Assembly (NCBI GenBank): GCA_949293335.1
Contig: CASFDA010000010.1
Span: forward strand, 2,567-66,566
Length of the DNA stretch: 64,000 nucleotides
Source: an uncultured Spirochaetales bacterium
Lineage (GTDB): Bacteria; Spirochaetota; Spirochaetia; Sphaerochaetales; Sphaerochaetaceae
Direction: 5' to 3'
Below, piece by piece: positions 15,399-33,301 of this stretch (position 1 is the stretch's first letter; the number at the start of each line of letters is the position of its first letter). The translations under genes and the position numbers were made by a program. A model generated the notes under the pieces. That model ran no database searches. It was not told the DNA's origin and saw only the letters and a program-made list of their open reading frames with translations.

Positions 15399-15443
15399 AA
15401 TGCGTAGTAAATAACAACCTAAAACATGTAAAGTTTCAAGAGG

Positions 15444-15970
15444 CTATATGATCTCCTCTTTCCAGCTGGTGATGTTTCTCGTCTTTGATGAGAAGGAAAC
15501 ACCTAAAAGGTGAATTCTCTTTCCTGTCGATAGATATTTTTCGTGATAACGCTTTGCTTTGATCTGATTCAACTTCATATTCATCTCCGGCCCGTCCTGA
15601 TCATATCTTGAAGAGAAGATCTGAATTCATAGAATGAATATGAAGAAAGATTTGCAAAATTGAAGTGAACTACCGGATATTTTGCAAAGTTGTATGTTGT
15701 GTTTTTCGAAATATACAATCCCTTGAAGAACTCTTTTTTCCCTTTGAAAAGCGCATCAAGAGTAGAACAGAATAGGCTTTTTCCATATCGTCTGGGTCTT
15801 GAGATAAAGTAGTATCCAAAAGGTGGTTCAACAAGAGAGTATATATACTGAGTTTTATCTACATAGATATAGTTATTTGTCCTCAAGAGCTCAAATGAAG
15901 ATATGTTTATTGCAATCCTCTTCATAGCTAGAGATGATAACACAGAAGAAATGTTCTTCATAGTTTGCAT
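15444..15970 (-). pseudogene. AAA-ATPase-like / PD-(D/E)XK (DUF1703-type) gene with a large internal deletion
   Basis: The 129-aa N-terminal piece (YIYVDKTQYIYSLVEPPFGYYFISRPRRYGKSLFCSTLDALF) ends at TGA 15581. In another frame a short C-terminal piece follows: MKLNQIKAKRYHEKYLSTGKRIHLLGVSFSSKTRNITSWKEEII*. That piece matches the usual extreme C-terminus of this family, normally about 500 aa. Confidence 0.65.
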
Positions 15971-16917
15971 ATGTGGCTGTAGTATGTTTCCCTTTCTTCT
16001 GTTTTTTCTTTATATTTCTTGTGCCAGTCAAGTTTTGAGAAGATACAATCAGAGAAAAGTTTTGCCGCTTCTTCTTCCTTGTATGGCTCTGAAAGGAGAT
16101 GCACAAGATCATATAATCTCTCACTCGACCAAGGAAGAGAATCTATTTCTGTTCTTACATCACTGAATTCCTGATATGCAATCATAAGGATATAGTCAAT
16201 CATCAGATAGTCCACAAGCGTATCGTGTGTTTTCCAATACTCGAGAAACATTTCTCTTGCAAAGGACACAAGCTTTGCATGTGGTCTGCTGCCTATTATG
16301 AAACCATGATAGAGGTTATGCTGTACAAAACACGTTTTCTGCCACTTTGTATGTTGAGAATAAAAGTAGTAGTGGAAATAGTCTTCGGGAATTTCTTTAG
16401 AGACAAATACAGTTGCGTCAAGCCAAAGGCCACCGTACTTTTCAAGAAGCAAAAACCGGATGATGTCAGAAAGCTGTGCAAATGATATCCAATCCTTTTC
16501 TTTTTTTTCCAGAATATACTCAGGAATATCTATATATTTTGAAATATTGTCTTTTGTTATCAGGATGACTTCAGCTCCATTACTGTTTCTTTCAACACTA
16601 CTAATACAGGCTTTTACAAGTTCTGGGGCAGTGTCCTTTCCCTGCCACCACAGAATCCATATCCGCCTTGGATAAGTTTCTGTCGACAATTTCTCAGAAA
16701 TATTTCTGTATTTTTCGATAACGTCAGATAGTTCTCTTCGCAAATATGATAACACAAATGCATGTTTCTTCTCTGCCATGCGATAGAAAATATCTAGTGG
16801 CCTATACAAGAATAGAAAGCCTCCAAGTGTATAGAAATTGAGTTTCCATGAAATATTCTTGCCAACTCTGAACCAGTTTTTGATGTGCCAGGAGTTTCCC
16901 ATCTCGTATCCCTTCAA
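15958..16917 (-). CDS. capsular polysaccharide synthesis protein family glycosyltransferase (Caps_synth / GT32-like)
   Basis: RIWILWWQGKDTAPELVKACISSVERN...FAQLSDIIRFLLLEKYGGLWLDATVFV is the classical Caps_synth pattern. ATG 16902 is an alternative start to the track TTG. Confidence 0.75.
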   Translation of the reverse strand: MKGYEMGNSWHIKNWFRVGKNISWKLNFYTLGGFLFLYRPLDIFYRMAEKKHAFVLSYLRRELSDVIEKYRNISEKLSTETYPRRIWILWWQGKDTAPELVKACISSVERNSNGAEVILITKDNISKYIDIPEYILEKKEKDWISFAQLSDIIRFLLLEKYGGLWLDATVFVSKEIPEDYFHYYFYSQHTKWQKTCFVQHNLYHGFIIGSRPHAKLVSFAREMFLEYWKTHDTLVDYLMIDYILMIAYQEFSDVRTEIDSLPWSSERLYDLVHLLSEPYKEEEAAKLFSDCIFSKLDWHKKYKEKTEERETYYSHICKL

Positions 16918-16949
16918 TCTTTCGTTTATTATATAGTGTGAGTTAGGTT

Positions 16950-17852
16950 ATGGACTATAGGAAGATAAAGGACTTTGTCCTCAAACACAATATAAAAGGC
17001 AAGTATAGATTTACAGATAGAGGAAGAGGGCAGAAGAAGCTTTGCCTATTCCTTATAGGATACAAGAAGGCTCTTTGGCCCGAGGTAGTTAAAAGATTCA
17101 AGCTATTTGTTCCTGAAGATGTGGATGTCTGTCTTTTGTCTTCTGGAAAATATTTTCCAGAATTGGAGAGGATGGCAGAGGAGAACTCTTGGTCTTATAT
17201 ATCGACAAAAAAGAATAATGTATGCCTCATACAGAATATTGCAATCAACATCTTTCAGAAAGCTGAATTAATATACAAGATTGATGAAGACATATTCCTT
17301 ACGAAAGGAACTTTTGAGAAGATGGAAAATGCCTTGAGAAAAGGGGAAGAAACCCTACCGTACAAAGTTGGGATGGCCGCTCCTCTTCTGAATGTCAATG
17401 CGTATGGCTTTTATAAGATTTTGGAAAAAATAGGTAAGCTTGGTGAGTATGAGAAAAGGTTTGGAAAACCTTATATGATTGCAGGACAGACAACACCTAT
17501 TGAGACAGATATAGAGATAGCTAAGTTCATGTGGGGAGCAGATGGTACAGTTCCTCAGATAGATGTGCTCAACCAATCATTTCCTGAAGGCTTGATATCT
17601 GTATGTCCGATTAGGCTCAGCATTGGCTGCATTCTTTATAAGCGATCATTTTGGGAGTCCTTCTGGCGTTTTCCTGTTGTATTCGGAAATGGTATGGGCC
17701 TAGATGAGACTATAGCAATAGGGGCAACTGCTGCAAATTCTCAGGTGTTAGTTGTTGCCGAGGACGCAGTAGTAGGGCATTTTGGATATGGTCCACAGAC
17801 AAAAGAAATGATGACTCTTTATGAAAGTAAGCCAGAGTTATTCACGCTTTGA
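16950..17852 (+). CDS. hypothetical protein, possible GT-A-like transferase
   Basis: 300-aa ORF embedded in the glycan locus. The only recognisable element is an acidic IDEDIF segment after a beta-alpha-like N-terminal region. No confident family assignment. Confidence 0.3.
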   Translation: MDYRKIKDFVLKHNIKGKYRFTDRGRGQKKLCLFLIGYKKALWPEVVKRFKLFVPEDVDVCLLSSGKYFPELERMAEENSWSYISTKKNNVCLIQNIAINIFQKAELIYKIDEDIFLTKGTFEKMENALRKGEETLPYKVGMAAPLLNVNAYGFYKILEKIGKLGEYEKRFGKPYMIAGQTTPIETDIEIAKFMWGADGTVPQIDVLNQSFPEGLISVCPIRLSIGCILYKRSFWESFWRFPVVFGNGMGLDETIAIGATAANSQVLVVAEDAVVGHFGYGPQTKEMMTLYESKPELFTL

Positions 17853-18770
17853 CTCTTCCATTATTGTCTCATAAAGCTTTAATACGAGGCCTCCATCATT
17901 CCTCATGTCTACTTTACGTACAAAAGGAAGGCCAGATGATATGATTTCATCATAGTCTTCTATCTTGAAAGTATATGGAAAGCCTCTTTCCCAATCGATA
18001 TAACGCTGATTTGCTCTATTCGAACAATTGTATTCTTTGTCATATAGTCTTTCTCTAAAGTAGGCATTATTGTATGCAAGAATTGCTGGGAATACTTCTT
18101 CTGAAGATCTTGTCTTTTTGAAGTTTTTTTCTATCCATTTTGCTTTACTAAGTATGTATTCTGCAAATTCATTAGTAATACTGAACCAGTTTGACCCTTT
18201 TGCTGGAACGTACTGTCCGTGTATTCGGTCTATACGGCAAATAAACTGTAGAAAAACAAATCCGTATTCGATGAGGTAAACTACTCGATTTAATAGCTTG
18301 CTTTTTGTTCGGTAATACTTAGACAGAATGTGGTAATACTTTATTTCGGTTGTGTATGGTTTGTTTCTGAAAGGCCAGGCGTTTTGGGGAAAACGGAAAG
18401 AAATAAACTCCTTACCTTGGTGTTCATCAAAGAAAGAAAGGATTTTCTCTTGTGACCAAACAGGAAAATCTGCATTTGATAGCAGGTGATAATATGCATA
18501 TTTGTCATGTCCTCTGGCCTTTCTTAAGAGCAGAATCTCACATTCTGTTTGAGAATAATCAGCCCAGTAAATGGGAATTTCACTAAAAACTTCAATGTAT
18601 GAATGATGGGCACAAGATTTCAATCTTTCGAAATCAGAAAAGCCAGATTTTTTATCGATGTGAATAAAAATATTAACACGTGGATTATCTAGGGCCTTTA
18701 TAAGGAGTTCTAGTTGCTTAAAATTCGTGTGAGCCATAATCAGATATGCATGTTTTTGTGGAATTCCCAT
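17838..18770 (-). CDS. GT14 (core-2/I-branching type) beta-1,6-N-acetylglucosaminyltransferase-like enzyme
   Basis: HAYLIMAHTNFKQLELLIKALDNPRVNIFIHIDKKS and GSNWFSITNEFAEYI are typical of Branch/GT14 family proteins. Confidence 0.75.
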   Translation of the reverse strand: MGIPQKHAYLIMAHTNFKQLELLIKALDNPRVNIFIHIDKKSGFSDFERLKSCAHHSYIEVFSEIPIYWADYSQTECEILLLRKARGHDKYAYYHLLSNADFPVWSQEKILSFFDEHQGKEFISFRFPQNAWPFRNKPYTTEIKYYHILSKYYRTKSKLLNRVVYLIEYGFVFLQFICRIDRIHGQYVPAKGSNWFSITNEFAEYILSKAKWIEKNFKKTRSSEEVFPAILAYNNAYFRERLYDKEYNCSNRANQRYIDWERGFPYTFKIEDYDEIISSGLPFVRKVDMRNDGGLVLKLYETIMEESKRE

Positions 18771-18833
18771 AGTTCCAAAAGTGTATAATAATAATTACAG
18801 ATTGATAAGATTTGACTTCACATTGTTAAAGAA

Positions 18834-19760
18834 ATGAGTACTAAGGAAAAAACTTTAAAACGAAAATTTGCATTTTTAAATAAAATTTTCTGGATTGGTT
18901 TTTATTCAAAACATTGGATAAATTACATAAACAATAAGAAAATAAATTTGTTTATGAGCACTATAGGAAATGAAGCTCAATCCCTTATTGAAAAATACAA
19001 AGATACTGTTGTTCCTTCTAGCCCTATAGGAAATAGAGTTTGGGTATTTTGGTACACTGGATTGGAAACTGCTCCTTCCATAGTAAAAAAATGCATTGAA
19101 GAGATGAAGAAAGTTGAGGAGATTGATCTTGTCGTATTAGATAAAAACAACTTAGATAATTATTTCAACTGGAACGAGGATATAAAGAAACGTTTTACAG
19201 ATGGAACCATATCTGTAACTTTTCTTTCAGATGTAATACGTAATCAGCTTTTATCTCGATTTGGCGGGTTCTGGTTCGATGCTACCCTTTTAATCATAGA
19301 CAAGTCTTTCTTGAAAGAACATATGAATGATAATTTCTACTCTTTAAAGCATGGAGACTATGCAGCTTGCTCACATTTTAACAATGGTATGTGGAGTTCT
19401 TTTCTTACAGGAGCACCAAAAAATCATCCTCTTACCTCTTTTGCTTATGAGTTTTTTTGTTGGTATTGCAGCAAATATGAGAGCTTGGTGGATTATTTTC
19501 TAATTGATTATGTGTATATGCTTGCTTATCTCTCATTCGATCAGGTAAAAACTCAAATTGATTCTCTCGAGGCAGAGAATGAAGATGTGTTTTATATGGG
19601 GCGCAATATTCACAAAAAATGTACAGCAGTAAAGTGGGAGCAAGTTTTATATAAAAATAAACTACAAAAGCTGATATGGAATGTGAAAGGAGCTGAGAAA
19701 TTAGGAAAAGAGTCTTTCTATTCTCGTATTCTTGCTTATAACGGAGAAGAAAATGACTAA
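18834..19760 (+). CDS. capsular polysaccharide synthesis protein family glycosyltransferase (Caps_synth / GT32-like), paralogue
   Basis: RVWVFWYTGLETAPSIVKKCIEEMKK...FLSDVIRNQLLSRFGGFWFDATLLI parallels 15958..16917. Confidence 0.75.
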   Translation: MSTKEKTLKRKFAFLNKIFWIGFYSKHWINYINNKKINLFMSTIGNEAQSLIEKYKDTVVPSSPIGNRVWVFWYTGLETAPSIVKKCIEEMKKVEEIDLVVLDKNNLDNYFNWNEDIKKRFTDGTISVTFLSDVIRNQLLSRFGGFWFDATLLIIDKSFLKEHMNDNFYSLKHGDYAACSHFNNGMWSSFLTGAPKNHPLTSFAYEFFCWYCSKYESLVDYFLIDYVYMLAYLSFDQVKTQIDSLEAENEDVFYMGRNIHKKCTAVKWEQVLYKNKLQKLIWNVKGAEKLGKESFYSRILAYNGEEND

Positions 19761-20901
19761 TCGAAAGCTCAGAGTGTTATATGTTTTTGGTGCTATTTCA
19801 GATGGTGGTGTTGAACATATCACTTCGGATCTAGTAAAAAATATGGATCCTGAAGTTGTTACTGTTTCAGCAGTTTATCATAGTTGTGATATAAAAGAAG
19901 GAATACAGGCTATACCTTGTCTTTATGAGCTGTGGCCCAATATGGAAAAGGCTCCTAATTTCAACACCTTGAATTGTGTGCAGTATAGGCATTGGTGGAA
20001 AAGCTTCATTGCTTCACATGAAAAATATGACATTGTTCATCTTCATTATGTTGATTCAGCTTTCTGTTATTTAGATTTATTTAAAAAAGCTGGGACAATA
20101 ACAATTTGTCATTCGCATAACCCACACGCAAAGCCTTTTACATTAGGTCTCCTCTGGAGCATGATAATATCATATCCAGCTCGATATATATGTGATTATG
20201 CTTTTGGGTGTTCACATCAAGCCGCAGAAGAGATATTTGGTCGCAAAATGCTTGAAAGCGGGCGCTGTCAAGTTTTATTTAATGGCATATATTTAGACAA
20301 GTTTAAATATAACAAAGAAAAACGAAATCTAATCCGCAGAGAAGAAGGTATTAGTGACGATAAGGTCATCATAGGCCATGTTGGACGTTTTGAATATCAA
20401 AAGAATCACAGTTTTCTTATAGATATCTTCAATTATTATCACAATGAGATTAATAACAATTCAGAGCTTTGGCTTATTGGTACTGGTAGCCTTTTGGGGC
20501 AAATACAAGAAAAAGTAAAAACATTGGGATTGACCGATCATGTTAGATTCTTTGGCAATATATCGAATGTAAGTGACTATTTGCAGGCGTTCGATTGTTT
20601 TTTGATGCCATCGAATTATGAAGGACTGTCTTTGGCAATTGTTGAAGCACAAGTTTCTGGTCTTCCTTGTGTTGTATCTGATGCTATCCAGTTTGACAGT
20701 GATATTAAAGCAGGACTGCTCCATGTATTATCATTGAAAAAATCATCTATAAAAGATTGGTCATTGATGATCGATAACGTAGTAAAGAAAGAGAGGTTTG
20801 ACTGTACAACTTATGCAAAAGAAGCAGGCTTCGATATCAAGGAAGTTGCAAAGCAACTACAGAAGTTATATTGTGATGTTTGCCTGAGATTCTCAAATTA
20901 A
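19753..20901 (+). CDS. glycosyltransferase family 4
   Basis: LRVLYVFGAISDGGVEH and NYEGLSLAIVEAQVSGLPCVVSD (E-x7-E). Start at ATG 19753 behind GGAGAAG; the track start is a TTG. Overlaps the preceding gene by 8 nt. Confidence 0.8.
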   Translation: MTNRKLRVLYVFGAISDGGVEHITSDLVKNMDPEVVTVSAVYHSCDIKEGIQAIPCLYELWPNMEKAPNFNTLNCVQYRHWWKSFIASHEKYDIVHLHYVDSAFCYLDLFKKAGTITICHSHNPHAKPFTLGLLWSMIISYPARYICDYAFGCSHQAAEEIFGRKMLESGRCQVLFNGIYLDKFKYNKEKRNLIRREEGISDDKVIIGHVGRFEYQKNHSFLIDIFNYYHNEINNNSELWLIGTGSLLGQIQEKVKTLGLTDHVRFFGNISNVSDYLQAFDCFLMPSNYEGLSLAIVEAQVSGLPCVVSDAIQFDSDIKAGLLHVLSLKKSSIKDWSLMIDNVVKKERFDCTTYAKEAGFDIKEVAKQLQKLYCDVCLRFSN

Positions 20902-20950
20902 GACTTAATTTGTAAAACTTTAGGTCTGTACATTTATATTATAAACAGCA

Positions 20951-21982
20951 ATGGGGTTTAATGTGTTTTATAATTTATTGACTCATAAGAAAAAGGCTTC
21001 GGGGGGGGCGCTAGCAATATTTTTAATTTTGATTTTGATTGCTATTCCTTCCTGTTCTCGTGAAACTGAAAGCAATGAAATCATGATATATACAACAGGG
21101 GAAGATTTCCGGACAGAAAATCTAAGAGCAGATCTAGATGAAAGGTTTCCTGACTATGATATAACCATTGAGTACTATCCAACAGGTAATCTTGCTGCCA
21201 AGCTTGTAGCAGAATCAGGACATTCCGAAGGTGATATTATACACTCATTCGATTATGGTTATTACAGTATGGTTGGTCATGAATTTGCTCCTCTTGACTA
21301 CGATACTTCTGTATATGATCCAGATGCTTTGATTTTTGATAATGATGGTACCTTGCGTATTGTTCCAGAGTTGAAAAATAGCGGAGTTGTAGTTGTGAAT
21401 ACAGAGGTTCTTGCAGAAAGAAATTTGCCCGAACCTGAAAGTTATATGGATCTGCTAGATCCAATGTACAAAGGTTTGATTTCGATGCCAAATCCAAAAA
21501 CTTCTGGTACGGGATACATGTTTCTTAAGCTCCTAGTTAATGAGATGGGAGAAGATGAGGCTTTCAGCTATTTTGATGCTTTCAGTGATAATGTGCTCCA
21601 GTATACAACTTCTGGGTCTGGTCCAGTGAATGCACTTGTGCAAAAAGAGGTGGCTATAGGGCTAGCGATGACTGCACAGGTAGTTGAAGAACAGCAGAAA
21701 GGAGCTCCTCTGAAGATCATTGCATTGGATTATGGTAGCCCATTTTGTTTCTATGGAAGTGCTATCATCAACGGTAAAGAAACCAGAGCACAAGTCAAAG
21801 AGGTCTTTGACTATATAGTAACTGACTATATTCCAAAAGAAAGAGAACTGTGGTTCCCAGAAAAGATATACAAAGATAAGGACTTCATTATTCAAGGATA
21901 TCCGACAGATATTGTCTATGGAGATATGTCAAATAATACACCAGAAGAAAAGGAAAGGCTTCTTTCTAAGTGGGAATATTGA
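20951..21982 (+). CDS. ABC transporter substrate-binding lipoprotein (Fe3+/thiamine/2-aminoethylphosphonate-type family)
   Basis: 343 aa. Signal peptide ends in a lipobox-like IAIPSCS. The KTSGTGYMFLKL block is typical of this class of type-II SBPs. Confidence 0.7.
   Translation: MGFNVFYNLLTHKKKASGGALAIFLILILIAIPSCSRETESNEIMIYTTGEDFRTENLRADLDERFPDYDITIEYYPTGNLAAKLVAESGHSEGDIIHSFDYGYYSMVGHEFAPLDYDTSVYDPDALIFDNDGTLRIVPELKNSGVVVVNTEVLAERNLPEPESYMDLLDPMYKGLISMPNPKTSGTGYMFLKLLVNEMGEDEAFSYFDAFSDNVLQYTTSGSGPVNALVQKEVAIGLAMTAQVVEEQQKGAPLKIIALDYGSPFCFYGSAIINGKETRAQVKEVFDYIVTDYIPKERELWFPEKIYKDKDFIIQGYPTDIVYGDMSNNTPEEKERLLSKWEY
21001..21008 (+). repeat. homopolymeric G8 tract inside codons 17-20 of the SBP gene
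   Basis: cttc GGGGGGGG cgc, read directly. It encodes ...ASGGA... in the signal-peptide region. It is the longest G/C run I noticed in the window and lies in an AT-rich locus. Confidence 0.9.
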
Positions 21983-22761
21983 TGAGTAAGAAGATAGAGG
22001 TTATAGGTCTTTCAAAAAGATTCAATGCGGGAAAAGAAATTCTTGATGATGTAAGCTTTGATGTAGAAGAAAGTGAATTCTTGTCGATACTTGGTCCTTC
22101 GGGGTGTGGAAAGACGACTCTTTTGCGAATACTTATTGGTTTGCTTTCACCTACATCTGGAAAAATAATTAAAGATGGAATTGATATCACATTGCTTCCT
22201 CCGGATAGAAGGAGCATGGGAATAGTCTTTCAGAATTATGCACTATTTGAAAATATGTCAGCCATCAAGAATGTTGCCTATGCTTTATATGTGCATCATG
22301 ACACAAAGGAAGATGCATATAAGAAAGCAGAAGAGATCCTGACTCTGATGGGGCTTTCTAAGGATATTTTCCACCTTAAACCTGCAATGCTATCTGGAGG
22401 ACAGCAGCAGCGTGTTGCAATTGCTAGAACTCTTGCACTTGGACCTGATGTAATATTGTTTGACGAACCGCTGAGCGCTCTTGATATTGATACGCGAATT
22501 CTCCTGAGAAAAGAAATAAAGACACTTCAGAAGAAGCTTGGGACAACAATGATCTATGTTACCCATGATCAGGAGGAGGCTTTCTCTTTATCTGATAGAA
22601 TCATGGTTATGCAGAACGGAAAAATAGAACAGATAGGAACTCCAGATGAACTGATCGACAATCCTTCAAGTGATTATGTTCGTCATTTTGTTCGTGATAA
22701 TATAGAAGCGAAGATAGAGGGCCTGATAAGGTTCTATAGAAAGGAAGAACTTACAAAGTGA
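21982..22761 (+). CDS. ABC transporter ATP-binding protein
   Basis: Walker A GPSGCGKTT, signature LSGGQQQRVAIAR, Walker B ILFDEPLSALD. The ATG shares one base with the SBP TGA. Short (259 aa), with no C-terminal TOBE-like extension. Confidence 0.9.
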   Translation: MSKKIEVIGLSKRFNAGKEILDDVSFDVEESEFLSILGPSGCGKTTLLRILIGLLSPTSGKIIKDGIDITLLPPDRRSMGIVFQNYALFENMSAIKNVAYALYVHHDTKEDAYKKAEEILTLMGLSKDIFHLKPAMLSGGQQQRVAIARTLALGPDVILFDEPLSALDIDTRILLRKEIKTLQKKLGTTMIYVTHDQEEAFSLSDRIMVMQNGKIEQIGTPDELIDNPSSDYVRHFVRDNIEAKIEGLIRFYRKEELTK

Positions 22762-24311
22762 AAAAGAAAATCTCGTATCTTCTTCTGTTATTCTTTTTTA
22801 TCGCTCTATGCTTTCCAATAATCCTACTATTTATAGAGGCAGGGCAATCTGATGTAGCGGAGATCCTGTTTTCTTCAAGGTTCTCGGAAGCATTGAAGAA
22901 TTCTATTATCTCTTCAAGTGTTGCAACATTTTTCTCTGTGACTCTTGCATATCTTCTTTCGTATTCTCTTACAAGGGTTAATATTCCTTTTTCTAGTGTT
23001 TTTAATATTCTTTTTACTTCGCCGATGCTGTTGCCATCCCTGTCGATTGGAATGGGTATAATTCTTCTTTTTGGACAGAATGGTATTGTTACTAGACTTT
23101 TCAATTCAAGTACATCTATTTATGGTTTCATTGGTATCGTGCTGGGGTCAATACTTTACTCTTTCCCTGTTGCCCTGATAATGATTACAGAGATGCTCAA
23201 AGGGGAGGATGCAACTCCATATGAAGCAGCGAAGGTTCTTCAATTAGGGAAGATACATACTTTTTTAGCTGTTACGTTTCCTTATATCAAGAAACCAATG
23301 ATAGCTACGATATTTGCTGTTTTTACAATGATAATTACAGATTATGGTGTGCCGTTAATGATAGGGGGAAGATATGTAACTCTTCCAGTGATAATGTATC
23401 AGGATGTAATTGGCATGCTCGATTTCGGAAAAGGAGCGGTCATTGGAATTGTACTTCTTTTTCCTGCTGTTGTTGCTTTCATACTTGAAGTGGTTAATAA
23501 GGATTCTAATATATCTACATTTACAAGAAAGCAGATAGAAAAGACAGACAAGATATTAGTGAGAAACATTGTATTCATAATTTGTCTCGTTGCTCTTTTG
23601 CTCGTAGTTGCTCCAATCATTTGTTTTTTAATCCTTTCTTTCTCAACTGATTATCCTGTTAATCTGGCATTTACAACAGAGCACATAAGATCAACATTAG
23701 ATAGGGGAGCGCTTGAGTATTGGGGCAATTCTCTCCTAATCTCGTTTTTTACATCTTTTATCGGTACAGGAATTTCATTTATGACTGCTTATATTACAAC
23801 AAGATGTAATGTAAAGAGTCGGAATATTCTGCACATATTATCTCTTCTCACACTTGCTATTCCTGGTATTGTACTCGGACTTTCTTATTCGATGGCTTTT
23901 AGTGGATCTTTCATATATGGAACGATATTAATACTTGTGTTTGTTAATATAATTCACTTTTTCTCTTCCCCGTATCTTATGGCTAATAATGCTTTGAGTA
24001 AGATTAATAGTAATCTTGAAGATGTAGGGGCCACCCTTGGCATTCCTCGTCTTAATTTCATTTTCAATGTCATTGTTCCAATATCATTTTCATCAATGGT
24101 TGAGATGGCTTCATATTTCTTCATCAATTCGATGATGACAATATCTGCTGTGTCATTTCTTGCTACGTCCCATACTCGTCCACTTTCTCTTCTCATTTCT
24201 TCTTTTGAAGCGCAGATGCTGATCGAATGTATTGGGGTTGTCTCATTGATGATATTCCTGACAAACATAGTGGCAAAATTCTTATTTCATTTGTTAAAGA
24301 AGGTTGTATGA
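22758..24311 (+). CDS. ABC transporter permease, fused double-domain (ThiP/FbpB/AfuB-like)
   Basis: 517 aa with two tandem 6-TM permease halves. The GTG start overlaps the ATPase stop (GTGA). Confidence 0.85.
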   Translation: MKKKISYLLLLFFFIALCFPIILLFIEAGQSDVAEILFSSRFSEALKNSIISSSVATFFSVTLAYLLSYSLTRVNIPFSSVFNILFTSPMLLPSLSIGMGIILLFGQNGIVTRLFNSSTSIYGFIGIVLGSILYSFPVALIMITEMLKGEDATPYEAAKVLQLGKIHTFLAVTFPYIKKPMIATIFAVFTMIITDYGVPLMIGGRYVTLPVIMYQDVIGMLDFGKGAVIGIVLLFPAVVAFILEVVNKDSNISTFTRKQIEKTDKILVRNIVFIICLVALLLVVAPIICFLILSFSTDYPVNLAFTTEHIRSTLDRGALEYWGNSLLISFFTSFIGTGISFMTAYITTRCNVKSRNILHILSLLTLAIPGIVLGLSYSMAFSGSFIYGTILILVFVNIIHFFSSPYLMANNALSKINSNLEDVGATLGIPRLNFIFNVIVPISFSSMVEMASYFFINSMMTISAVSFLATSHTRPLSLLISSFEAQMLIECIGVVSLMIFLTNIVAKFLFHLLKKVV

Positions 24312-25219
24312 ACAAAAGTGAATTCGATTTACTAACATTAATTTATAAGAATAAGAAGACAAGACTGGAAGATTTATCAAAAGTCACAAGAACTCCGCTT
24401 GCGCGAATAACACAAATTGTTGAAAAGCTAAAAGATGATGGTATTCTTTCCGAATCCAGAAAAAAAGAGATTAGCATTTCCGAAAAAGGAGAACTGAGGC
24501 TTGAGCCATATCGAGTGAGAAAAATGCTGATAATCGCTGCGGGCTTTGGCTCTCGTCTTGTTCCTGTGACACTAAATACACCCAAACCGCTTATCAGAGT
24601 AAATGGTACAAGGATAATTGATACTATTCTCGATACATCTTTGGCTGCTGGAATAGAGGATATAACGATTGTAAGAGGGTATCTTTCTGAGCAGTTTGAT
24701 CAGCTATTATATAAGTACCCAAATCTGAAGTTTGTTTATAATCCATATTTCAATGAAGCGAATAACATTTCTTCACTTTATATATCTTCATCGCAGGTTG
24801 ATGCAGAAAATATGTACATTGCAGAGGCTGATTTGCTTATATCAAATCCATCGATTATAGAGAAATACCAATGGTCATCAAATTATTTGGGAGTTCCGGT
24901 AAAACGAACTGACGACTGGTGCTTTACAGTATCTTCTGATAAAGATTCCAAAATACAAAGCCTTTCTGTAGGTGGATATGATTGTTATCATATGTTTGGA
25001 ATTTCATTTTGGGCCAAAACCGACGTTGAAAAGTTATATGAAGATGTTCGGAAAGCCTGGCTTCTTCCTGGAGGAAAAGAGAAGTACTGGGATCAAGTAC
25101 CTCTCGATATTTTTAAAGATGACTTTTCTGTCTCGGTACGAAAATGCTCTTTTTCTGACATCGCAGAGATAGATACTTTCAGAGAATTGCAGGATATTGA
25201 TCATTCTTATTGCTATTAA
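24308..25219 (+). CDS. winged-helix + LicC-like nucleotidyltransferase (phospho-headgroup cytidylyltransferase family)
   Basis: ATG 24308 overlaps the permease TGA (ATGA). Residues 1-70 look like a MarR-type wHTH (LEDLSKVTRTPLARITQIVEKLKDDGIL). This is followed by the LIIAAGFGSRLVPVTLNTPKPLIRVNG nucleotide-binding loop, as in LicC. Confidence 0.7.
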   Translation: MNKSEFDLLTLIYKNKKTRLEDLSKVTRTPLARITQIVEKLKDDGILSESRKKEISISEKGELRLEPYRVRKMLIIAAGFGSRLVPVTLNTPKPLIRVNGTRIIDTILDTSLAAGIEDITIVRGYLSEQFDQLLYKYPNLKFVYNPYFNEANNISSLYISSSQVDAENMYIAEADLLISNPSIIEKYQWSSNYLGVPVKRTDDWCFTVSSDKDSKIQSLSVGGYDCYHMFGISFWAKTDVEKLYEDVRKAWLLPGGKEKYWDQVPLDIFKDDFSVSVRKCSFSDIAEIDTFRELQDIDHSYCY

Positions 25220-26049
25220 GAATTGATCCATGCTGTAAAACCATGTGTAATGCGTTTTTCAACTGGAGGGAGTTCCATATAGTCTTTTCCATAAGCTTTC
25301 TTGAGATATGTGTCATAGTCATTAGGGACACAAAGCATGCTGTCTCTGAATTTTATTCTTCTGACTGGAAATAACACTTCCTTTTTTACTGCGGATCGCT
25401 CAATCCCTTCTCCCCAGATGATGTTGCCACAGTAATTGGCATCATCAAAGTTGATTTTAGATGCCACTTCGTTTGCCTTTTTAGTAAAAAATGGACGAAT
25501 TTGTTTGTAAAGAAGATGAGGGATGAATGTTCCTATATTATTGATCAGTTTGATAAGAGGTTTCTCATTTCCTCTGTTTATCCACATTGTTCCCATTGCC
25601 GGCTGCTTTATCATATTAACTCTGTTCTGGAGCTTTTCCATTTCTTTTTTCTCATCAGGAAGGCCATCTAATGGGAAAATGTCTACATATATTCCTATAT
25701 TGTATGGCTTGTAGTATTCTGTCTCATCAATAATCCTGGAATTAGGAAGATAGATCTTTCCAAAAGGAAAGGGGTATAAACCAGTTTCGTCATTTTCTGG
25801 TGAAATGTAATCGAAGTCTAGATTCTTTTCTGTCTTAATAAGTTCAGACAGCTTCATGTAATCAGGCCTGGGGACATATACATCCATGTCATCATCCCAG
25901 GGAATAAAGTCATGGTGTCTGACAGCCCCAAGGCAAGACCCATCAGATAACATGTATGTGATTGAGTGTTTTTCGCAAAACTTGTCAAAAGATACTACTA
26001 GAGAATATAGGATTTCATGCAGTTCATTGATTGATTCAATCTTTTTCAT
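25216..26049 (-). CDS. LicD-family phosphotransferase (phosphocholine/phospho-alcohol transferase)
   Basis: MLSDGSCLGAVRHHDFIPWDDDMDVYVPR is the signature N-terminal LicD motif. 277 aa. Confidence 0.85.
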   Translation of the reverse strand: MKKIESINELHEILYSLVVSFDKFCEKHSITYMLSDGSCLGAVRHHDFIPWDDDMDVYVPRPDYMKLSELIKTEKNLDFDYISPENDETGLYPFPFGKIYLPNSRIIDETEYYKPYNIGIYVDIFPLDGLPDEKKEMEKLQNRVNMIKQPAMGTMWINRGNEKPLIKLINNIGTFIPHLLYKQIRPFFTKKANEVASKINFDDANYCGNIIWGEGIERSAVKKEVLFPVRRIKFRDSMLCVPNDYDTYLKKAYGKDYMELPPVEKRITHGFTAWINS

Positions 26050-26181
26050 AAAAGTTCTATTTCCTTAAAAAAACTTGGATATAATGCATCTAAGCAAAGA
26101 ATATGTTAGTATAACTTTGTTATTTTCAAAAGAGTTTTAAGCTTTTGTGTAAAAGTTGATTGATAGGGGATAGCAGGTAGT

Positions 26182-26970
26182 ATGGAAACTATTTTTGTAG
26201 TAAGTCATCTAAATAATTTTAAAATATCCACAAGATCAAATCTTCATCAAATTATTCGTGTCGGTGAATCAGCAAACATGCTTTCTGAATGCGAAGAATA
26301 TAAAGATAACACTTTAGACAATATATCTCAAAAAAATAAATTTTATTGTGAGCTTACTGCTTTGTATTGGATATGGAAGAATATTAATTGCGATGTAATT
26401 GGACTAGAACATTATCGTAGATATTTTATCGGAACTGAACCGCTTGTAGTTAATCCTAACGGAAAACCAGAATTAATTTATGCAATTTCTAAAGATGAAA
26501 TTAATGATATTTTAGCATCTTCAAATGATACCATGATTTTGCCAAAGCCCTGGATAATGAAGAAAACAACTGTTAAAGATCAATTTAGTTCTTTTCATGG
26601 TCGAGCGAATTATTTACTGATGGAGAAATGCTTGGTTGAAACTTATCCAAACTTACGAGAAGCTTTTCTTGATATAATGAATTCAAATAGAATTTATACA
26701 TGTAACATGTTTATTTGTAAAACCAATTTAATACATAAGTATTGTGAGTGGTTATTTCCTTTGCTTCTTAAAATAGAGAATGCTATGGATCTAAGTTTGC
26801 CTGCCAATAATCGCATGATTGGATATATGAGTGAGCGCTTATTTAATGTTTGGTTACTCATACAACATCCACATATTGTAGAAAAAGATACTATTGTTTT
26901 TGTTGGTAAGGAGAATGGATTAATAAAAAGAATGAAAAGAAGAATTCAAGCAAGGAAAATGGGATATTAG
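26182..26970 (+). CDS. DUF4422 domain protein (putative glycosyltransferase)
   Basis: YCELTALYWIWKNINCDVIGLEHYRRYF is the hallmark block of DUF4422 exopolysaccharide proteins. Confidence 0.7.
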   Translation: METIFVVSHLNNFKISTRSNLHQIIRVGESANMLSECEEYKDNTLDNISQKNKFYCELTALYWIWKNINCDVIGLEHYRRYFIGTEPLVVNPNGKPELIYAISKDEINDILASSNDTMILPKPWIMKKTTVKDQFSSFHGRANYLLMEKCLVETYPNLREAFLDIMNSNRIYTCNMFICKTNLIHKYCEWLFPLLLKIENAMDLSLPANNRMIGYMSERLFNVWLLIQHPHIVEKDTIVFVGKENGLIKRMKRRIQARKMGY

Positions 26971-26979
26971 ATTATTGTT

Positions 26980-27584
26980 TTACATAGAATTGATGAAATG
27001 ATTTTTTGAGACTTTGTTATGAGTTTTGGGGAAAGGGACTCGGCCTCTTATGAGTAATAGATGGCAATCAGCAGTGAGTGTGCGACTGCCATCTTTGCCT
27101 TGTTCTTTCACCTTTCTTCCTGTTTGATCATAAGTCTTGAGTATTGTTCGGCGAAGAGAGAACTTGCCCCTTGAAGATCCTAGCGCCACATAGCAACGGT
27201 GTCGTCCTGAGTAGCAAGTTGCCCATGCGAGTCTTTCTATTCCTCCATATCCCCAAAAGTCTTGTGTGTTTTATCAAGAGGTAAAACAAAATGGGAAGTG
27301 TAGTCAAAAACTAAGATATAGAAATAAGGAAAAAGGTATAGATGTACGCAATAGATGACAAGAAGAAAGTAATAGAGCTTTACTAAAGTACGGCATTAGA
27401 TCCATAGGTTTGTTTCATGCGCTCTAGCACATCTCGTGTTGTCTCCCATTTGCATCCCAGCCATTCTGGCTGTCTGCCTTATGGAGTGACCTCGTTTCAA
27501 CAGCAGCATATCCTGCCAGTAGTTTCCTTTTTCATAAACTACCTTCGATAGAATGAAATAACGGCCCTTACGAGCCGTATCCAA
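26980..27584 (-). pseudogene. degenerate transposase/HTH remnant (fragments in different frames)
   Basis: 27396..27584 encodes ...YWQDMLLLKRGHSIRQTARMAGM..., which resembles the N-terminal HTH of IS21/IS30-type transposases. The downstream frame (about 27270..26980) has no proper start. Stops interrupt continuity and no intact DDE domain is present. Confidence 0.3.
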
Positions 27585-27968
27585 TCCTATTATCTATTAT
27601 CCATTCTTGTCGGTGAAGTGCAGATCATTTTGCAATATCCAAATTCTTGCGCACATCTTATTCATTTTTACTGTTGGAATATAATATGGTAAGGAACAAG
27701 CAGGTTGAGGTTAAGAAGATCGTGATGCAGTCGTTGAGTTCATCTTCTTCCACAATTATAAAAGACTAAAGGACGTACTTGGAGGGTGTTTCCAATAAAG
27801 TTTAGATTGTAAAACATGAGCGGAATTCACATTGAAGATTGACAGCTAAGACATGGAATAGGAAGATAGCAAGTGAACTATAACTATTATCAATTGGATA
27901 CAGTAGAAGAAAGAGTGTTCATATACCGGGTACATATATCAGCTATTAAATGGGAAGGTTTTTGAATA

Positions 27969-28880
27969 ATGATAAAAAAAGGATTTGAAAAAGAAATTAT
28001 AGATGGTTATGAAGTCTCTGAAAAAACAAAAAAAATCTGGTACGTTGAATTAGATTTATTACGAAAGTTTATTCAAGTATGCGAGGAAAATGATATAAAA
28101 TATTATTTAGCAGATGGTAGCCTGTTAGGTGCAGTTAGACATAAGGGCTTTATTCCTTGGGATAATGACATAGACATTGCTGTTCCTCGAAAGGATTATA
28201 ATAGGTTATTGAAAATAGCTCAGGCAAAATTTGTTTATCCATATTTTTTTCAATCATCATATTCTGATAAATACTATTTAAGGTTTCATTCACAATTAAG
28301 AAATACTACTACGACGGCAATCTTGGATGCTGAAAAGGGTGTTGCAAAGTTTAATCAAGGAATCTTTATTGATATTTTTCCATTAGATTGCTGTGCTCCA
28401 AATATAAAATTACAAAAAAAATTAGATAGGAAAATAAAATTCTACAATGCTCTTTTTTCATATATTGTTCCTTCCTGCCGAGAATCAAAAAAAGTAATAG
28501 GAATTATTCATAGTGTTCTATTAAATATAATTAGTTTATTTTTTATAGATAGAATTAAGCATAGGATATTTGCTCATGCCGATAAAATTTTGTCTTTATA
28601 TTCTAATAGTAAATCAACACTATCATACAATTTTTGGATTTCATCAGCAGATTTACCGTATAATGTTTTTGTAAATTCAAATGGTCAGAATTCATTTTTG
28701 GAATTTGAAGGAATAAAAGTAGCCGTTCCTTTTGATTATCAGAAATACTTGAAAATAAAATTTGGTGATGATTATATGATTCCGAAAAAAGGTGGTGATT
28801 CGCATGGGGAAGTTTTTTTTGATCCAGAAAATAGTTATGTAAAATATGTACGACGTAGAAGGTTGTGGGTTTTATATTAA
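27969..28880 (+). CDS. LicD-family phosphotransferase, second copy
   Basis: YLADGSLLGAVRHKGFIPWDNDIDIAVPR. 303 aa, in a very AT-rich context. Confidence 0.85.
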   Translation: MIKKGFEKEIIDGYEVSEKTKKIWYVELDLLRKFIQVCEENDIKYYLADGSLLGAVRHKGFIPWDNDIDIAVPRKDYNRLLKIAQAKFVYPYFFQSSYSDKYYLRFHSQLRNTTTTAILDAEKGVAKFNQGIFIDIFPLDCCAPNIKLQKKLDRKIKFYNALFSYIVPSCRESKKVIGIIHSVLLNIISLFFIDRIKHRIFAHADKILSLYSNSKSTLSYNFWISSADLPYNVFVNSNGQNSFLEFEGIKVAVPFDYQKYLKIKFGDDYMIPKKGGDSHGEVFFDPENSYVKYVRRRRLWVLY

Positions 28881-29308
28881 TAATGATTTAAATAATGGAT
28901 TATTACTTTTGCCAGAAAAAACGAGTATCCTAAAGAGGAGCTATCTTAATATAATTACAAATATCCATGAAAGAAAAAGTGTTGTGAAGATTAAACGATA
29001 ACAATAACAACCTACTCTTAATGTAGATATACAATGCGTCTTCAATAAAGAAATTGACACTATTGTTTTTCAATTATTAATTATGTCGATTTGTACGGTA
29101 ACTTGAGGATTCAAAGGAAGATGACTCAAAAAAGATAGGTAATGGAAGATGTTGTTAGTTTATCAGAATGTACTGATAAAGCTTTAGTGTTTTTCGAGAT
29201 TTAGATTGTTTTTACTAAACGAAAAGCATTAATAAAGTTTCCTTCTATATTTTTGTCCTATTGACCGTATATATACCATATTTGTATTCTGAAGAAAACT
29301 GAACATAT

Positions 29309-30271
29309 ATGAAGCTTATAACATTTGACAATATAAAATCATTGAATATAAACCCTGTGGATTGTTATAACTGGGTTGTCGATATGATTGCACATAAATC
29401 AACTGCAATCCTTCCTGCAAAAACCCATATGGATTTGTCTTGTGGTGTTTTCTGCAATGTTATGCCTAGTATAATTAAGATGTCGGACTGTAATTGGGGC
29501 GGAGTAAAAATTGTTACAAGGTATCCTCAACGAAGTCCTTCTCTTGATAGCAAAATACTTCTTTGGAATGCTGATTCTGGAGAATTCTTGGCTTTACTTG
29601 ATGGAAATTGGATCACTGCAATGCGAACAGGTGCAGTAGCAGCACATTCGATTAATTGTTTTGCAAAACAAGATTTTTATTCTATAGGAATTATTGGATT
29701 AGGGAATGTTGCTAGATCAACCCTTTTGGTTCTTGCATCTGTAATTAAACGAAAAATAAATATTAAGTTACTAAAATATAAAAATCAGGCTGAGCTATTT
29801 ATTGAAAGGTTTAAAGAATATAAAAACTTGCAGTTTACAATAGTAAATTCTGTACAGGATCTTATTGTAGGGTCAGATGTTATTATCTCATGTGCGACAT
29901 ATTTTGAAAATAATATTGCTTGCGATGAATGGTTTGACGAAGGAGTACTTTTACTTCCTATACATACAAGGGGATTCCTGAATTGTGATTTATTTTTCGA
30001 TAAGATTTATGCTGATGATACATCACATGTAGCACATTTTAAATATTTCAATAATTTTAAACATTTTGCAGAGGTCAGTGACTATGTTTGTGGACAAGAT
30101 ATAGGCCGTGAAAATAATCAAGAGAGAATTTTAGTTTATAATATTGGTCTTTCAATTCATGATATATATTATGCATCGCATATTTATAAAGAGATAATGA
30201 AAAGAACTGAGCTATATAACTCTTTGGTGAACTTAAGGCTAGAAGAACCTACTCAGAAATTTTGGATATAA
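29309..30271 (+). CDS. ornithine cyclodeaminase / mu-crystallin family NAD(P)-dependent enzyme
   Basis: WITAMRTGAVAAHSI followed by the Rossmann loop IGIIGLGNVARS, with overall length 320 aa, as in the OCD/mu-crystallin family. Confidence 0.7.
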   Translation: MKLITFDNIKSLNINPVDCYNWVVDMIAHKSTAILPAKTHMDLSCGVFCNVMPSIIKMSDCNWGGVKIVTRYPQRSPSLDSKILLWNADSGEFLALLDGNWITAMRTGAVAAHSINCFAKQDFYSIGIIGLGNVARSTLLVLASVIKRKINIKLLKYKNQAELFIERFKEYKNLQFTIVNSVQDLIVGSDVIISCATYFENNIACDEWFDEGVLLLPIHTRGFLNCDLFFDKIYADDTSHVAHFKYFNNFKHFAEVSDYVCGQDIGRENNQERILVYNIGLSIHDIYYASHIYKEIMKRTELYNSLVNLRLEEPTQKFWI

Positions 30272-30382
30272 TTGTAACTTTCTTTTCAGAACTGAATGGT
30301 ATGTATGTTTTTAAAATGTGAATTGTTTGTTGTATCAAAAGAGAATATCATCAGATAAAATTTGCAAAATCAAGGAAGTAAT

Positions 30383-32206: not shown

Positions 32207-32290
32207 ATCAATTTTATTTGCTATGTCATAAATCTAGTTATAGGTAAAGGTTGTAGTAAATAGGAGGATAAATGTAATAGAGGTTTTATT

Positions 32291-33301
32291 TTAAATAAAA
32301 ATATAATTAGTTCTCGTGGTTTCCTGCCACCAGTCTTCATTAGAAAGATACCAATCAATTGTCTTCTCAATCCCGTCTGCAAACATAGTTTCAGGAAGCC
32401 AATCTAGTTCCGTGTGTATTTTTTCCGGATCGATTGCATATCTCTGGTCATGTCCTTTTCTGTCTGCAACAAACTCTATCAATGATTCTGGTTTGTTGAG
32501 CTTTTTGAGAATGAGCTTAACTATATCTATATTTCTCATCTCATTATGGCCACCAATATTGTAGATTTCTCCATCTTTTCCTTTGTGTAAGATGAGATCT
32601 ATTGCCTTGCAATGGTCCTCAACATATAACCAGTCTCTTACATTGATACCTTTGCCATAGACAGGCAGTTTCTTGTCATTCAGTGCATTGATAATCATCA
32701 GAGGAATCAACTTCTCAGGAAATTGATAGGGACCATAGTTGTTGGAACATCTTGAGATCGTTACAGGTAGTCCATATGTTCTGTGGTAGGCTTGCACCAA
32801 AAGGTCAGCCGATGCTTTGGATGCACTATATGGAGAACTTGTATGGAGTGGGGTAGTCTCTTTAAAGAGAAGATCAGGTCTGTCCAGAGGTAGATCTCCA
32901 TATACCTCGTCAGTAGATACCTGATGAAACCGACTGACTCCATATTTTTTGGATGCATCCATGAGCACAGATGTTCCGATGATGTTTGTTTCCAAAAAGA
33001 TACCTGGATTCTCAATTGATCTATCGACATGGCTCTCTGCTGCAAAGTTGACTACAATATCTGGATGGTACTCTGTAAAAACAGCATCAATTGCGTTTCT
33101 GTCTCTGATATCTCTTCTGATGAACTTGAACTGCGGATTATCCATTACATCTTTGAGGGTAGATAGGTTTCCTGCATATGTAAGAGCATCAAGACAGATT
33201 ATATGGTAATCTGGATGCTTTTTAAGCATGTGGAATACAAAGTTTGAGCCAATAAAGCCAGCGCCACCAGTTACTAGAATTCGCAATTGTTTTCTCCCCA
33301 T
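32291..33301 (-). CDS. rfbB: dTDP-glucose 4,6-dehydratase
   Basis: ILVTGGAGFIGSNF, SPYSASKASADLLVQAY (YxxxK), 336 aa. Collinear with RmlB/RfbB throughout. Confidence 0.9.
   Translation of the reverse strand: MGRKQLRILVTGGAGFIGSNFVFHMLKKHPDYHIICLDALTYAGNLSTLKDVMDNPQFKFIRRDIRDRNAIDAVFTEYHPDIVVNFAAESHVDRSIENPGIFLETNIIGTSVLMDASKKYGVSRFHQVSTDEVYGDLPLDRPDLLFKETTPLHTSSPYSASKASADLLVQAYHRTYGLPVTISRCSNNYGPYQFPEKLIPLMIINALNDKKLPVYGKGINVRDWLYVEDHCKAIDLILHKGKDGEIYNIGGHNEMRNIDIVKLILKKLNKPESLIEFVADRKGHDQRYAIDPEKIHTELDWLPETMFADGIEKTIDWYLSNEDWWQETTRTNYIFI

Follow-up and report, generated by a model that had tools for sequence, protein, structure and literature searches.

The question raised by this locus is where a LicC-like nucleotidyltransferase obtains its phosphorus-bearing substrate in a bacterium whose genome has no match to choline kinase or the APH kinase fold. 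The stretch of DNA analysed (hereafter the window) is 64,000 nucleotides long and comes from an uncultured Spirochaetales bacterium (Sphaerochaetaceae; assembly GCA_949293335.1, contig CASFDA010000010.1, positions 2,567–66,566 of the forward strand), whose genome assembly (G000) is 1.92 Mb in size and 99.09% complete. It encodes an ATP-binding cassette (ABC) importer, a cytidylyltransferase with an N-terminal winged helix-turn-helix (wHTH) domain and, on the opposite strand, a LicD-family phosphotransferase. I propose that this system very probably imports a ready-made, phosphorus-bearing head group, activates it with CTP and transfers it with a LicD-type enzyme, and, with less assurance, that the head group is probably 2-aminoethylphosphonate (AEP).

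In the route that I infer, with its ligand, its CMP conjugate, its acceptor polymer and its DNA-binding step, a lipoprotein substrate-binding protein (SBP) would capture an aminoalkyl phosphonate or phosphate, most likely AEP, from the gut lumen, and a type-I ABC importer would bring it in with its phosphorus intact. A translationally coupled PntC-type cytidylyltransferase would then convert CTP and AEP to CMP-AEP, and LicD would move the head group onto a polysaccharide or teichoic-like polymer that the glycosyltransferases encoded nearby assemble. A kinase would be unnecessary, because the substrate arrives with its phosphorus, as would phosphoenolpyruvate (PEP) mutase, because the C–P bond would come from other organisms. 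In most members of the family, the wHTH enzyme would also repress its supply operon through an operator, TGTTCA-N25-TGAACA, that straddles the −10 box; this switch looks lost in the present genome.

Gene arrangement and missing genes

Four genes form a chain on the forward strand. The first (20951–21982) encodes the SBP, a 343-residue protein of the SBP_bac_6/8 type, whose signal sequence ends in IPSC and which is a probable lipoprotein. It is followed by the ATPase gene (21982–22761; 259 residues, ABC_tran) and by that of a fused double permease with two BPD_transp_1 units (22758–24311; 517 residues). The last gene encodes the 303-residue cytidylyltransferase, whose residues 1–70 (24308–24517) make up the wHTH domain, a predicted fold with weak HTH_24/MarR matches, while the remainder (24518–25219) is a LicC/PntC-fold domain matching NTP_transferase. 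The convergent LicD gene (25216–26049, reverse strand; Pfam LicD, E-value 1.2e-45, 156.8 bits) overlaps the end of the cytidylyltransferase gene by 4 nucleotides.

An earlier note on this DNA had described the SBP, ATPase, permease and LicC-like genes as chained by overlaps of 1–4 nucleotides, and the junctions are exactly those it gave. The TGA of the SBP gene (21980–21982) and the ATG of the ATPase gene (21982) have one base in common (TGATG), the ATPase stop codon (22759–22761) overlaps the GTG of the permease gene at 22758 (GTGA), and the permease stop codon (24309–24311) overlaps the ATG of the LicC-like gene at 24308 (ATGA). The longest open reading frames (ORFs) of the ATPase and LicC-like genes start earlier, at 21970 and 24227 respectively. 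Independent gene calls on three conspecific contigs chose the overlapping starts, giving proteins of 343, 259, 517 and 303 residues, with LicD convergent. A scan for promoters and terminators between 18500 and 27000 returned fewer promoter-like sites than shuffled sequences and no convincing terminator.

The same note had reported that the locus contains no kinase-fold ORF, which is borne out by the Pfam scan, and had allowed that a kinase might be encoded elsewhere. For the two families searched this can be answered, since neither Choline_kinase (PF01633) nor APH (PF01636) has a match in the locus or in the rest of the genome; as a control, the APH search detected that family in 13 of 14 reference genomes. 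PEP_mutase (PF13714) likewise has no match in the genome. The PhnW/AepZ transaminase (TIGR03301, best score 39.8 bits against a cut-off of 360.8) and the phosphonatase PhnX (TIGR01422, 29.5 bits against 220) are also absent from it. No LicB-type permease was seen among the ORFs at 10–36 kb, and no genome-wide search for one was made.

The cytidylyltransferase

Residues 68–297 of the enzyme align best with LicC (1jyk; E-value 1e-27, 31–32% identity), and next with the PntC domain of Treponema denticola Tde1415 (6pd1; E-value 6e-12). The model of the whole enzyme is of high confidence (pLDDT 95.5, pTM 0.92), and its Foldseek matches are LicC, with a template-modelling score (TMt) of 0.88–0.91 (0.91 for 1jyl), and then PntC-AEPT (6pd2).

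PntCs prefer AEP, and Glu104 and Glu196 of Tde-PntC occupy the positions of LicC Asp105 and Asp192 (Rice et al., 2019, PMC6697681). In the present enzyme Glu173 aligns with LicC D105, a position anchored via LicC R129 and D192 in the 1jyk alignment, and Glu is found there in 74 of 75 family members, where LicC has Asp. The family motifs are NEANNISS, xEAD, TDDWC and YWDQ. These were compared, at the level of motifs and from the machine-read Supplementary Fig. 15 of PMC6697681, with those of Ari- and Oul-PntC ('...KNNISSIY...CEAD' and 'T(D/G)DW') and of Spn- and Hin-LicC ('NNFYSLY...IDAD' and 'TNEW'). Because Glu173, NNISS and TDDW agree with Ari- and Oul-PntC, the signature appears to be that of the AEP-specific PntCs, above all of the Ari/Oul type, and not that of LicC, and the enzyme is predicted to be a CTP:AEP cytidylyltransferase.

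The window enzyme is 51–63% identical to other members of its family, and the architecture, consisting of the wHTH domain, a LEPYRV linker and the LicC-fold domain, spans about 295–303 residues. The catalytic domains of 75 members were compared over 236 columns, grouping these members by whether the enzyme is linked to an ABC importer, to a major facilitator superfamily (MFS) transporter or to the PEP mutase Ppm. Residues N152, N153, S156, E173, D175, T201, D203, W204 and W261 are identical in all three groups, and only four columns separate the groups, none of them in the signature motifs.

The importer

AEP importers of two kinds are known, namely the ABC importer AepXVW, with a PF13343 SBP, and the GlpT-like AepP (Murphy et al., 2021, PMC8316502). 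The importer encoded in the window has the architecture of the former, with a PF13343-type SBP, one ATPase and one fused double permease, the ATPase being truncated relative to the model. The best NCBIfam model for the SBP is phnS2 (TIGR03261; 167.6 bits over the full length, cut-off 392.75), that for the ATPase is PhnT2 (TIGR03265; 304 bits, cut-off 457.7) and that for the permease is PhnU2 (TIGR03262; 370 bits over positions 6–515, cut-off 593.25). The ATPase aligns with model positions 3–236 of 353 and therefore lacks the C-terminal regulatory domain of the PhnT2/PotA type; cassette ATPases of relatives mostly have about 245–280 residues. For the cassette SBPs, phnS2 is the best model in 30 of 30, below its cut-off, with two other AEP-SBP models next (29 and 21 of 30) and then a thiamine model.

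By sequence, the solved proteins nearest to the window SBP are VcA0625, AfuA and P5PA, and the same three proteins account for the top seven Foldseek matches of its AlphaFold2 (AF2) model (pLDDT 90.5; TM-scores 0.72–0.78, 21–24% identity). This group binds pyridoxal phosphate, glucose-6-phosphate and other sugar phosphates. Proteins that bind ferric iron rank below these organophosphate binders, at 12–18% identity, thiamine-binding TbpA and PotD are also lower in the list, and Salmonella STM0429, which I take to be PhnS, is 17th. Since its nearest sequences and folds are VcA0625, AfuA and P5PA, the SBP groups, on sequence and model, with binders of intact organophosphorus compounds. Its predicted ligand is AEP or a close aminoalkyl phosphonate or phosphate. 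The earlier note had assigned the SBP to the Fe3+/thiamine/AEP class and not to the choline/betaine class; the assignment holds, the nearest families being AEP-SBP models and the nearest solved folds binding organophosphates, not iron.

The signal-peptide codons of the SBP gene include a run of eight G (21001–21008). In the three conspecific contigs the run is interrupted (GAGGGGGG, GGGGGAGG), at equal length. Phase variation at this run was considered and rejected, since the four conspecific sequences do not differ in length, which indicates substitutions and not slippage.

Supply modules in related loci

Relatives of the wHTH enzyme account for at least 8000 matches in the protein collection and occur in at least 591 species genomes, which belong to Clostridia, Erysipelotrichales, Negativicutes, Treponema and Eggerthellaceae of the gut and rumen. 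The neighbourhoods of the 80 best-scoring related loci were compared, by calling ORFs, building profiles from recurring neighbour clusters and naming these with Pfam and NCBIfam, and supply modules and LicD genes were counted within 10 kb of the wHTH enzyme. The ABC transporter adjoins the enzyme in 54 loci, before it or after it, and does so in Clostridia, Erysipelotrichales, Negativicutes, Spirochaetes and Eggerthellaceae. The ABC cassette is the only supply module in 52 loci, an MFS transporter, directly downstream of the enzyme, in nine, and the AEP biosynthesis genes Ppm-Ppd-AEPT in seven. Two further loci combine the cassette with the AEP genes, and none has both the cassette and the MFS transporter. 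The biosynthesis genes score above their cut-offs (Ppm, TIGR02320, 414 against 320 bits; Ppd, TIGR03297, 455 against 312; AEPT, TIGR03301, 368 against 361). The MFS protein is a relative of the organophosphate:phosphate antiporters (OPA), its best models being PgtP, GlpT and UhpC, below cut-off.

In one spirochaete locus (L086, 2654–10891), genes for Ppd, PntC-AEPT and Ppm-CyTase are inserted into the cassette, where they separate the SBP gene from that of the ATPase, and AEP import and synthesis are thereby placed in one operon. In the genus of the window, a relative was found in 3 of 24 other species, and the module is therefore accessory. In two same-genus genomes (G014 and G016), the wHTH enzyme lies 1.6–3 kb from a true Ppm, and an SBP of cassette grade is lacking. 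The cassette occurs without Ppm in a genome of the same family (G136) and in three isolates (G041, G043 and G044; loci L016, L055 and L067), and together with Ppm in G238 and in the genome behind L089 (Bittarella). Overall, PEP mutase is found near the enzyme in G014, G016, G210, G238 and nine of the 80 loci. Cultured carriers of the module include Christensenella hongkongensis, Beduini massiliensis, Raoultibacter timonensis and Treponema sp. C6A8.

A quick maximum-likelihood tree of the enzymes, with SH-aLRT support only, places the MFS-linked enzymes in one clade nested among the ABC-linked ones, and splits the Ppm-linked enzymes between two or more positions, of which one is sister to the enzymes of ABC-linked Clostridia. 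The spirochaete enzyme with both ABC and Ppm genes falls inside an ABC-linked clade. The supply module thus switches several times within one tight enzyme clade, and because the signature residues stay constant through these switches, the enzymes look isofunctional whatever the supplier, their substrate being either made or imported.

Fusions between these proteins were also found. In three Erysipelotrichales genomes (a Thomasclavelia metagenome-assembled genome, Beduini massiliensis and a Coprobacillaceae isolate), permease, wHTH domain and enzyme are encoded by a single ORF of 830 residues (L015:1978–4470, L055:8393–10885 and L064:8393–10885), in which the former start Met is internal and the wHTH motifs are intact; the canonical operator was not found upstream of these fusions. 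They show that the enzyme tolerates tethering at the cytoplasmic end of the transporter. Together with the adjacency kept in 54 of the 80 loci, they also argue that the arrangement of transporter and enzyme is not due to chance. A predicted complex of the separate permease and wHTH enzyme scored 0.00, which speaks neither for nor against their association.

In two Eggerthellaceae loci (L067:10993–12765 and L081:12732–14522) the cassette is adjoined by a protein of 590–596 residues made of a wHTH domain, a LicC-like domain and an APH-fold kinase. These fusions have Ser at position 173, and the kinase-fused paralogues form a very long separate branch in the tree. Similar forms of 596–675 residues are present in 20 of 28 genomes of one family of the window's class (G085, G061 and others). 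The kinase-dependent route is thus a separate enzyme, which lowers the likelihood that this alcohol is also the substrate of the kinase-free cassette. In a Christensenellaceae locus (L003:10910–12655), the cassette is followed by genes for a patatin-like phospholipase and a GDPD glycerophosphodiesterase, which hints at release of head groups from lipids near the importer.

LicD genes and other candidate transferases

The convergent LicD is predicted to transfer the activated head group to a glycan, and a one-to-one pairing with the cytidylyltransferase is plausible. NCBIfam yields a single match for it, to the Mf1 cholinephosphotransferase (78 bits; cut-off 225). The whole genome has two LicD genes, both in this locus, and the second (27969–28880, forward strand; Pfam LicD, E-value 4.9e-39) may serve this pathway or the neighbouring one of nucleotidyltransferase and pyridoxal phosphate (NT-PLP) enzymes. 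LicD lies near the wHTH enzyme in 17 of the 80 related loci, and both LicD types often co-occur in relatives with a single wHTH enzyme.

The second LicD is part of another module (27969–32206), with an OCD/mu-crystallin-family gene and a gene for a 614-residue fusion of an NTP-transferase and a class I/II aminotransferase. The nucleotidyltransferase motif of this fusion, LLESD, has Glu at the same position as the PntCs. In related loci that have no LicD, the wHTH enzyme often has large membrane proteins as neighbours (L053:3924–6017, L042:14364–17069 and L075:15915–17714). One type, in 22 loci, couples a YidC-like (60KD_IMP) domain to a TagF-like glycerophosphotransferase domain; in others the YidC-like domain is coupled to a sulfatase/LtaS-like domain, or the protein consists of the latter. 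These neighbours may be alternative head-group transferases.

Alternative substrates

That a compound already bearing phosphorus is imported, activated directly with no kinase and transferred by LicD had been proposed in the earlier note, and is supported here by the gene absences, by the families and folds of the SBP, by the alternating supply modules and by the PntC signature. A number of points weigh against this reading, or against AEP as the head group. By both sequence and fold, the best solved homologue of the enzyme is LicC, a phosphocholine enzyme, and it retains the aromatic residues W136 and W191 of LicC (W204 and W261 here), as does Ari-PntC; the comparison with Ari- and Oul-PntC is one of motifs read from a figure. 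The importer reaches only 40–65% of the curated PhnS2/T2/U2 cut-offs, and its specificity may therefore differ. In ten of the 80 loci no supply module of the three kinds lies within 10 kb; three of these loci are on contigs shorter than 7 kb. The 80 loci are the top-scoring set and not a random one, and related genomes are not independent of each other. In the Ppm-linked loci a PntC domain is already present as a fusion with AEPT, and the wHTH enzyme there could therefore use a different phosphonate. AEP and phosphoethanolamine are near-isosteric, no result separates them, and PMC6697681 gives no data for PntC on phosphoethanolamine.

There is some chance, if a small one, that the imported head group is phosphoethanolamine from the turnover of host or dietary lipids, which would be converted to CDP-ethanolamine before transfer by LicD. 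In its favour, it is isosteric with AEP, Glu173 argues for a primary amine and not specifically for a C–P bond, the nearest solved relatives of the SBP bind phosphate esters, and it is phosphate esters that the OPA-family alternative usually carries. However, the third supply module consists of Ppm-Ppd-AEPT and not of an ethanolamine kinase or a phosphoserine decarboxylase, and the three best NCBIfam models for all SBPs are AEP binders. Direct import of phosphocholine, with the enzyme a true LicC making CDP-choline in a kinase-free variant of the pneumococcal Lic pathway, is improbable. Position 173 is Glu in nearly all members, as in AEP-specific PntCs, where LicC has Asp and the kinase-fused paralogues Ser, and the resemblance to LicC in identity, fold (TMt 0.91) and aromatic residues is matched by Ari-PntC in the last respect, which prefers AEP 440-fold despite keeping them (PMC6697681). 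The only NCBIfam match of LicD is to a cholinephosphotransferase, far below its cut-off, but no choline-type SBP is involved, the supply alternates with Ppm genes and not with LicA, and in Eggerthellaceae it is a separate, kinase-fused enzyme that adjoins the cassette.

I consider it about equally improbable that the ligand is another organophosphorus compound, such as a hydroxylated or N-methylated AEP, phosphonoalanine, or serinol or aminopropanol phosphate. The 80 neighbourhoods contain no recurrent tailoring oxygenase or methyltransferase, and genomes with no Ppm would have to rely on a compound uncommon in the environment. In favour of such a ligand are the scores far below the AEP equivalog cut-offs and the extra PntC domain of the Ppm-linked loci, which hints at a tailored phosphonate for the wHTH enzyme; phosphonate clusters often encode two PntCs (PMC8942020). 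Finally, the Pfam families of the SBP are generic, and Fe3+ binders, TbpA and PotD do appear lower in its fold list, so the transporter might be an ordinary importer of iron, thiamine or polyamines that stands beside a glycan gene by chance. This is very improbable given the adjacency across several phyla, the 4-nucleotide overlaps, the in-frame fusions of permease and enzyme, the AEP genes inside the L086 cassette, and the low identity and rank of the iron binders. Import of a phosphorus-bearing head group for direct activation, with AEP as the probable compound, is thus the reading that I retain.

The wHTH domain and its putative operator

In the AF2 model (pLDDT above 93), the wHTH domain has helices at residues 3–15, 20–27 and 31–43, strands at 47–49 and 55–57, and a further helix at 59–68. 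The first three helices are thus followed by a wing of two strands and a linker helix, and the domain folds with high confidence against the catalytic domain. The window domain matches HTH_24 and MarR at E-values of 0.0033 and 0.0058 only, compared with strong matches, down to 3e-12, in 37 of 38 relatives. In the family, helices 2 and 3 are almost invariant (TQRxIA and SxGTVNK). The window enzyme has TRLEDLSKVT and TPLARITQIV instead, without the conserved QR...S.G.VN residues, and is the only single-copy member that deviates in these helices. The other deviants are tandem extra copies (L078:8985–9875, LSAPCLAQET; L083:7128–8021, LDSTALSGIT), which lie beside a canonical copy and, in the tree, make up a long-branch pair.

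Upstream of the supply operons, an inverted repeat is conserved in the family. In 83 loci (1.3 Mb), TGTTCA-N25-TGAACA occurs in 26 exact copies in 23 loci, against about 0.1 expected, and with at most one mismatch in 52 copies in 44 loci, against 1–6 in shuffled sequences. The spacing of the dyad peaks sharply at 25 nucleotides, with 0–4 copies at every other spacing. The repeat lies immediately in front of the operon's first gene, with a ttGAca-like −35 box abutting the left half-site, a TAtAAT-like −10 box inside the spacer, 17 nucleotides after the −35 box, and the right half-site near +1. It precedes ABC-, MFS- and Ppm-linked operons as well as the kinase-fused gene in L081, and is found in the same genus, exact in G014 and with one mismatch in G016. 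A riboswitch was considered and rejected, since the left half-site lies between the −35 and −10 boxes, upstream of the likely transcription start, and no Rfam family was found at the dyad. No recurrent neighbour cluster other than the wHTH enzyme has a DNA-binding domain, and because the operator also brackets the −10 box of the enzyme's own promoter, this suggests that the family wHTH enzyme represses its own supply operon.

In the window, the only N25 candidate in the 49-nucleotide gap before the SBP gene is a degenerate dyad, TGTAAA-N25-TAAACA (20911–20947), with three mismatches to the family operator. Matches with three mismatches occur at chance frequency (14 in 20 kb), and the half-sites of this dyad are identical in the conspecific contigs. 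A search for inverted repeats near both intergenic regions found AT-rich short repeats only, and the whole-genome dyad count was at control level (10 against 7), the matches lying in GC-rich, coding-like sequence. Since the wHTH residues deviate and the operator is only a three-mismatch remnant, the regulatory link is probably ancestral in the window copy, and either lost or retargeted. The suggestion in the earlier note that the wHTH domain links activation to regulation is therefore well supported for the family, with its conserved operator on its own promoters, and probably fails for this copy, in which the helix-2 and -3 residues are lost and 20902–20950 holds a remnant. The closest relative (L001:6586–6669, 63% identity) has no N25 dyad; there, a TTGACA −35 box is followed by TGAACA-N27-TGTTCA, with the half-sites reversed, which may be a variant operator.

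It is possible, though I regard it as doubtful, that the wHTH-PntC protein is a trigger enzyme, which activates AEP with CTP, represses through the N25 operator the promoter of its paired supply module (importer, antiporter or Ppm pathway) with substrate or product as effector, and works at the face of the transporter, coupling uptake to nucleotidylation. A location of the enzyme at the cytoplasmic face is suggested by the natural permease-wHTH-enzyme fusions.

The surrounding glycan locus

The glycan locus is a low-GC island (14000–34000), with 30–38% G+C against 43–49% in the flanks. Its glycosyltransferase genes are of the Caps_synth (two genes), GT4, Branch and DUF4422 types, with an MGDG-synthase-like gene. 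It also encodes an MMPL protein and, beyond the second LicD, the OCD-like protein followed by the fusion of NTP-transferase and aminotransferase. The island further holds a 129-residue fragment of a predicted AAA-ATPase (PF09820, 15581–15970) and about 1 kb without long ORFs (26971–27968). It is consistent with horizontal acquisition.

Implications and comparison with known systems

In the literature searched, which was incomplete, no paper was found on import coupled to LicC/PntC with neither Ppm nor a kinase, nor on a wHTH-LicC/PntC regulator or its operator. Surveys of phosphonates count carriers of PEP mutase, about 5% of genomes (PMC8942020). If the proposed route is correct, a phosphonate or related head group would decorate the surfaces of many gut and rumen anaerobes with no Ppm, using material from other community members. 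Were the trigger-enzyme proposal to hold as well, phosphonate-decorated surfaces would be expected in hundreds of gut and rumen species lacking PEP mutase, fed by neighbours, protozoa or diet. Such a salvage route would bear on host immune recognition, on receptors for phages and lectins, and on the exchange of phosphorus compounds by cross-feeding. Because the module is small and common and is carried by cultured strains, the hypothesis is directly testable, and the conserved operator would provide a well-defined model for work on an enzyme that also acts as a repressor.

The succession of import, activation with CTP and transfer by LicD is that of the Lic pathway of S. pneumoniae and H. influenzae (LicB, LicA, LicC and LicD). 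The present system differs from it in having no LicA-type kinase, a binding-protein-dependent ABC importer in place of a LicB-type permease, Glu in place of Asp105, and an added wHTH domain. BirA and NadR are bifunctional enzyme-repressors, that is, nucleotidyl-transferring enzymes that carry a DNA-binding domain and control their own pathway, with the operator on their own promoter. Here both the enzyme fold and the type of HTH are different, the DNA binding is a prediction, and the wHTH domain of the window looks degenerate. AfuA, P5PA and VcA0625 (4r72-75, 6wce and 8x1a), which have the closest SBP folds, import intact phosphate esters as well; in contrast, they bind sugar phosphates or pyridoxal phosphate and have no nucleotidyltransferase coupled to them.

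The AEP importers AepXVW/PhnS2T2U2 are the nearest families for all three parts of the cassette, and the GlpT-like MFS transporter of the relatives resembles AepP (PMC8316502). Apart from the lower scores and the ATPase without a C-terminal domain, the main differences are that the importer is coupled here to an anabolic cytidylyltransferase, and not to the catabolic phnWX/phnWAY genes, which are absent from the genome, and that the hosts are Gram-positive-type gut anaerobes. With the Pnt pathway (PMC6697681), the system has in common a LicC-fold enzyme with the PntC Glu and the NNISS and TDDW motifs, a LicD in a glycan locus, and relatives that stand beside Ppm-Ppd-AEPT. The wHTH domain is absent from Ari-PntC (246 residues), Oul-PntC (235 residues) and Tde1415, and in the present genome Ppm, Ppd and AEPT are missing, ABC import taking the place of biosynthesis.

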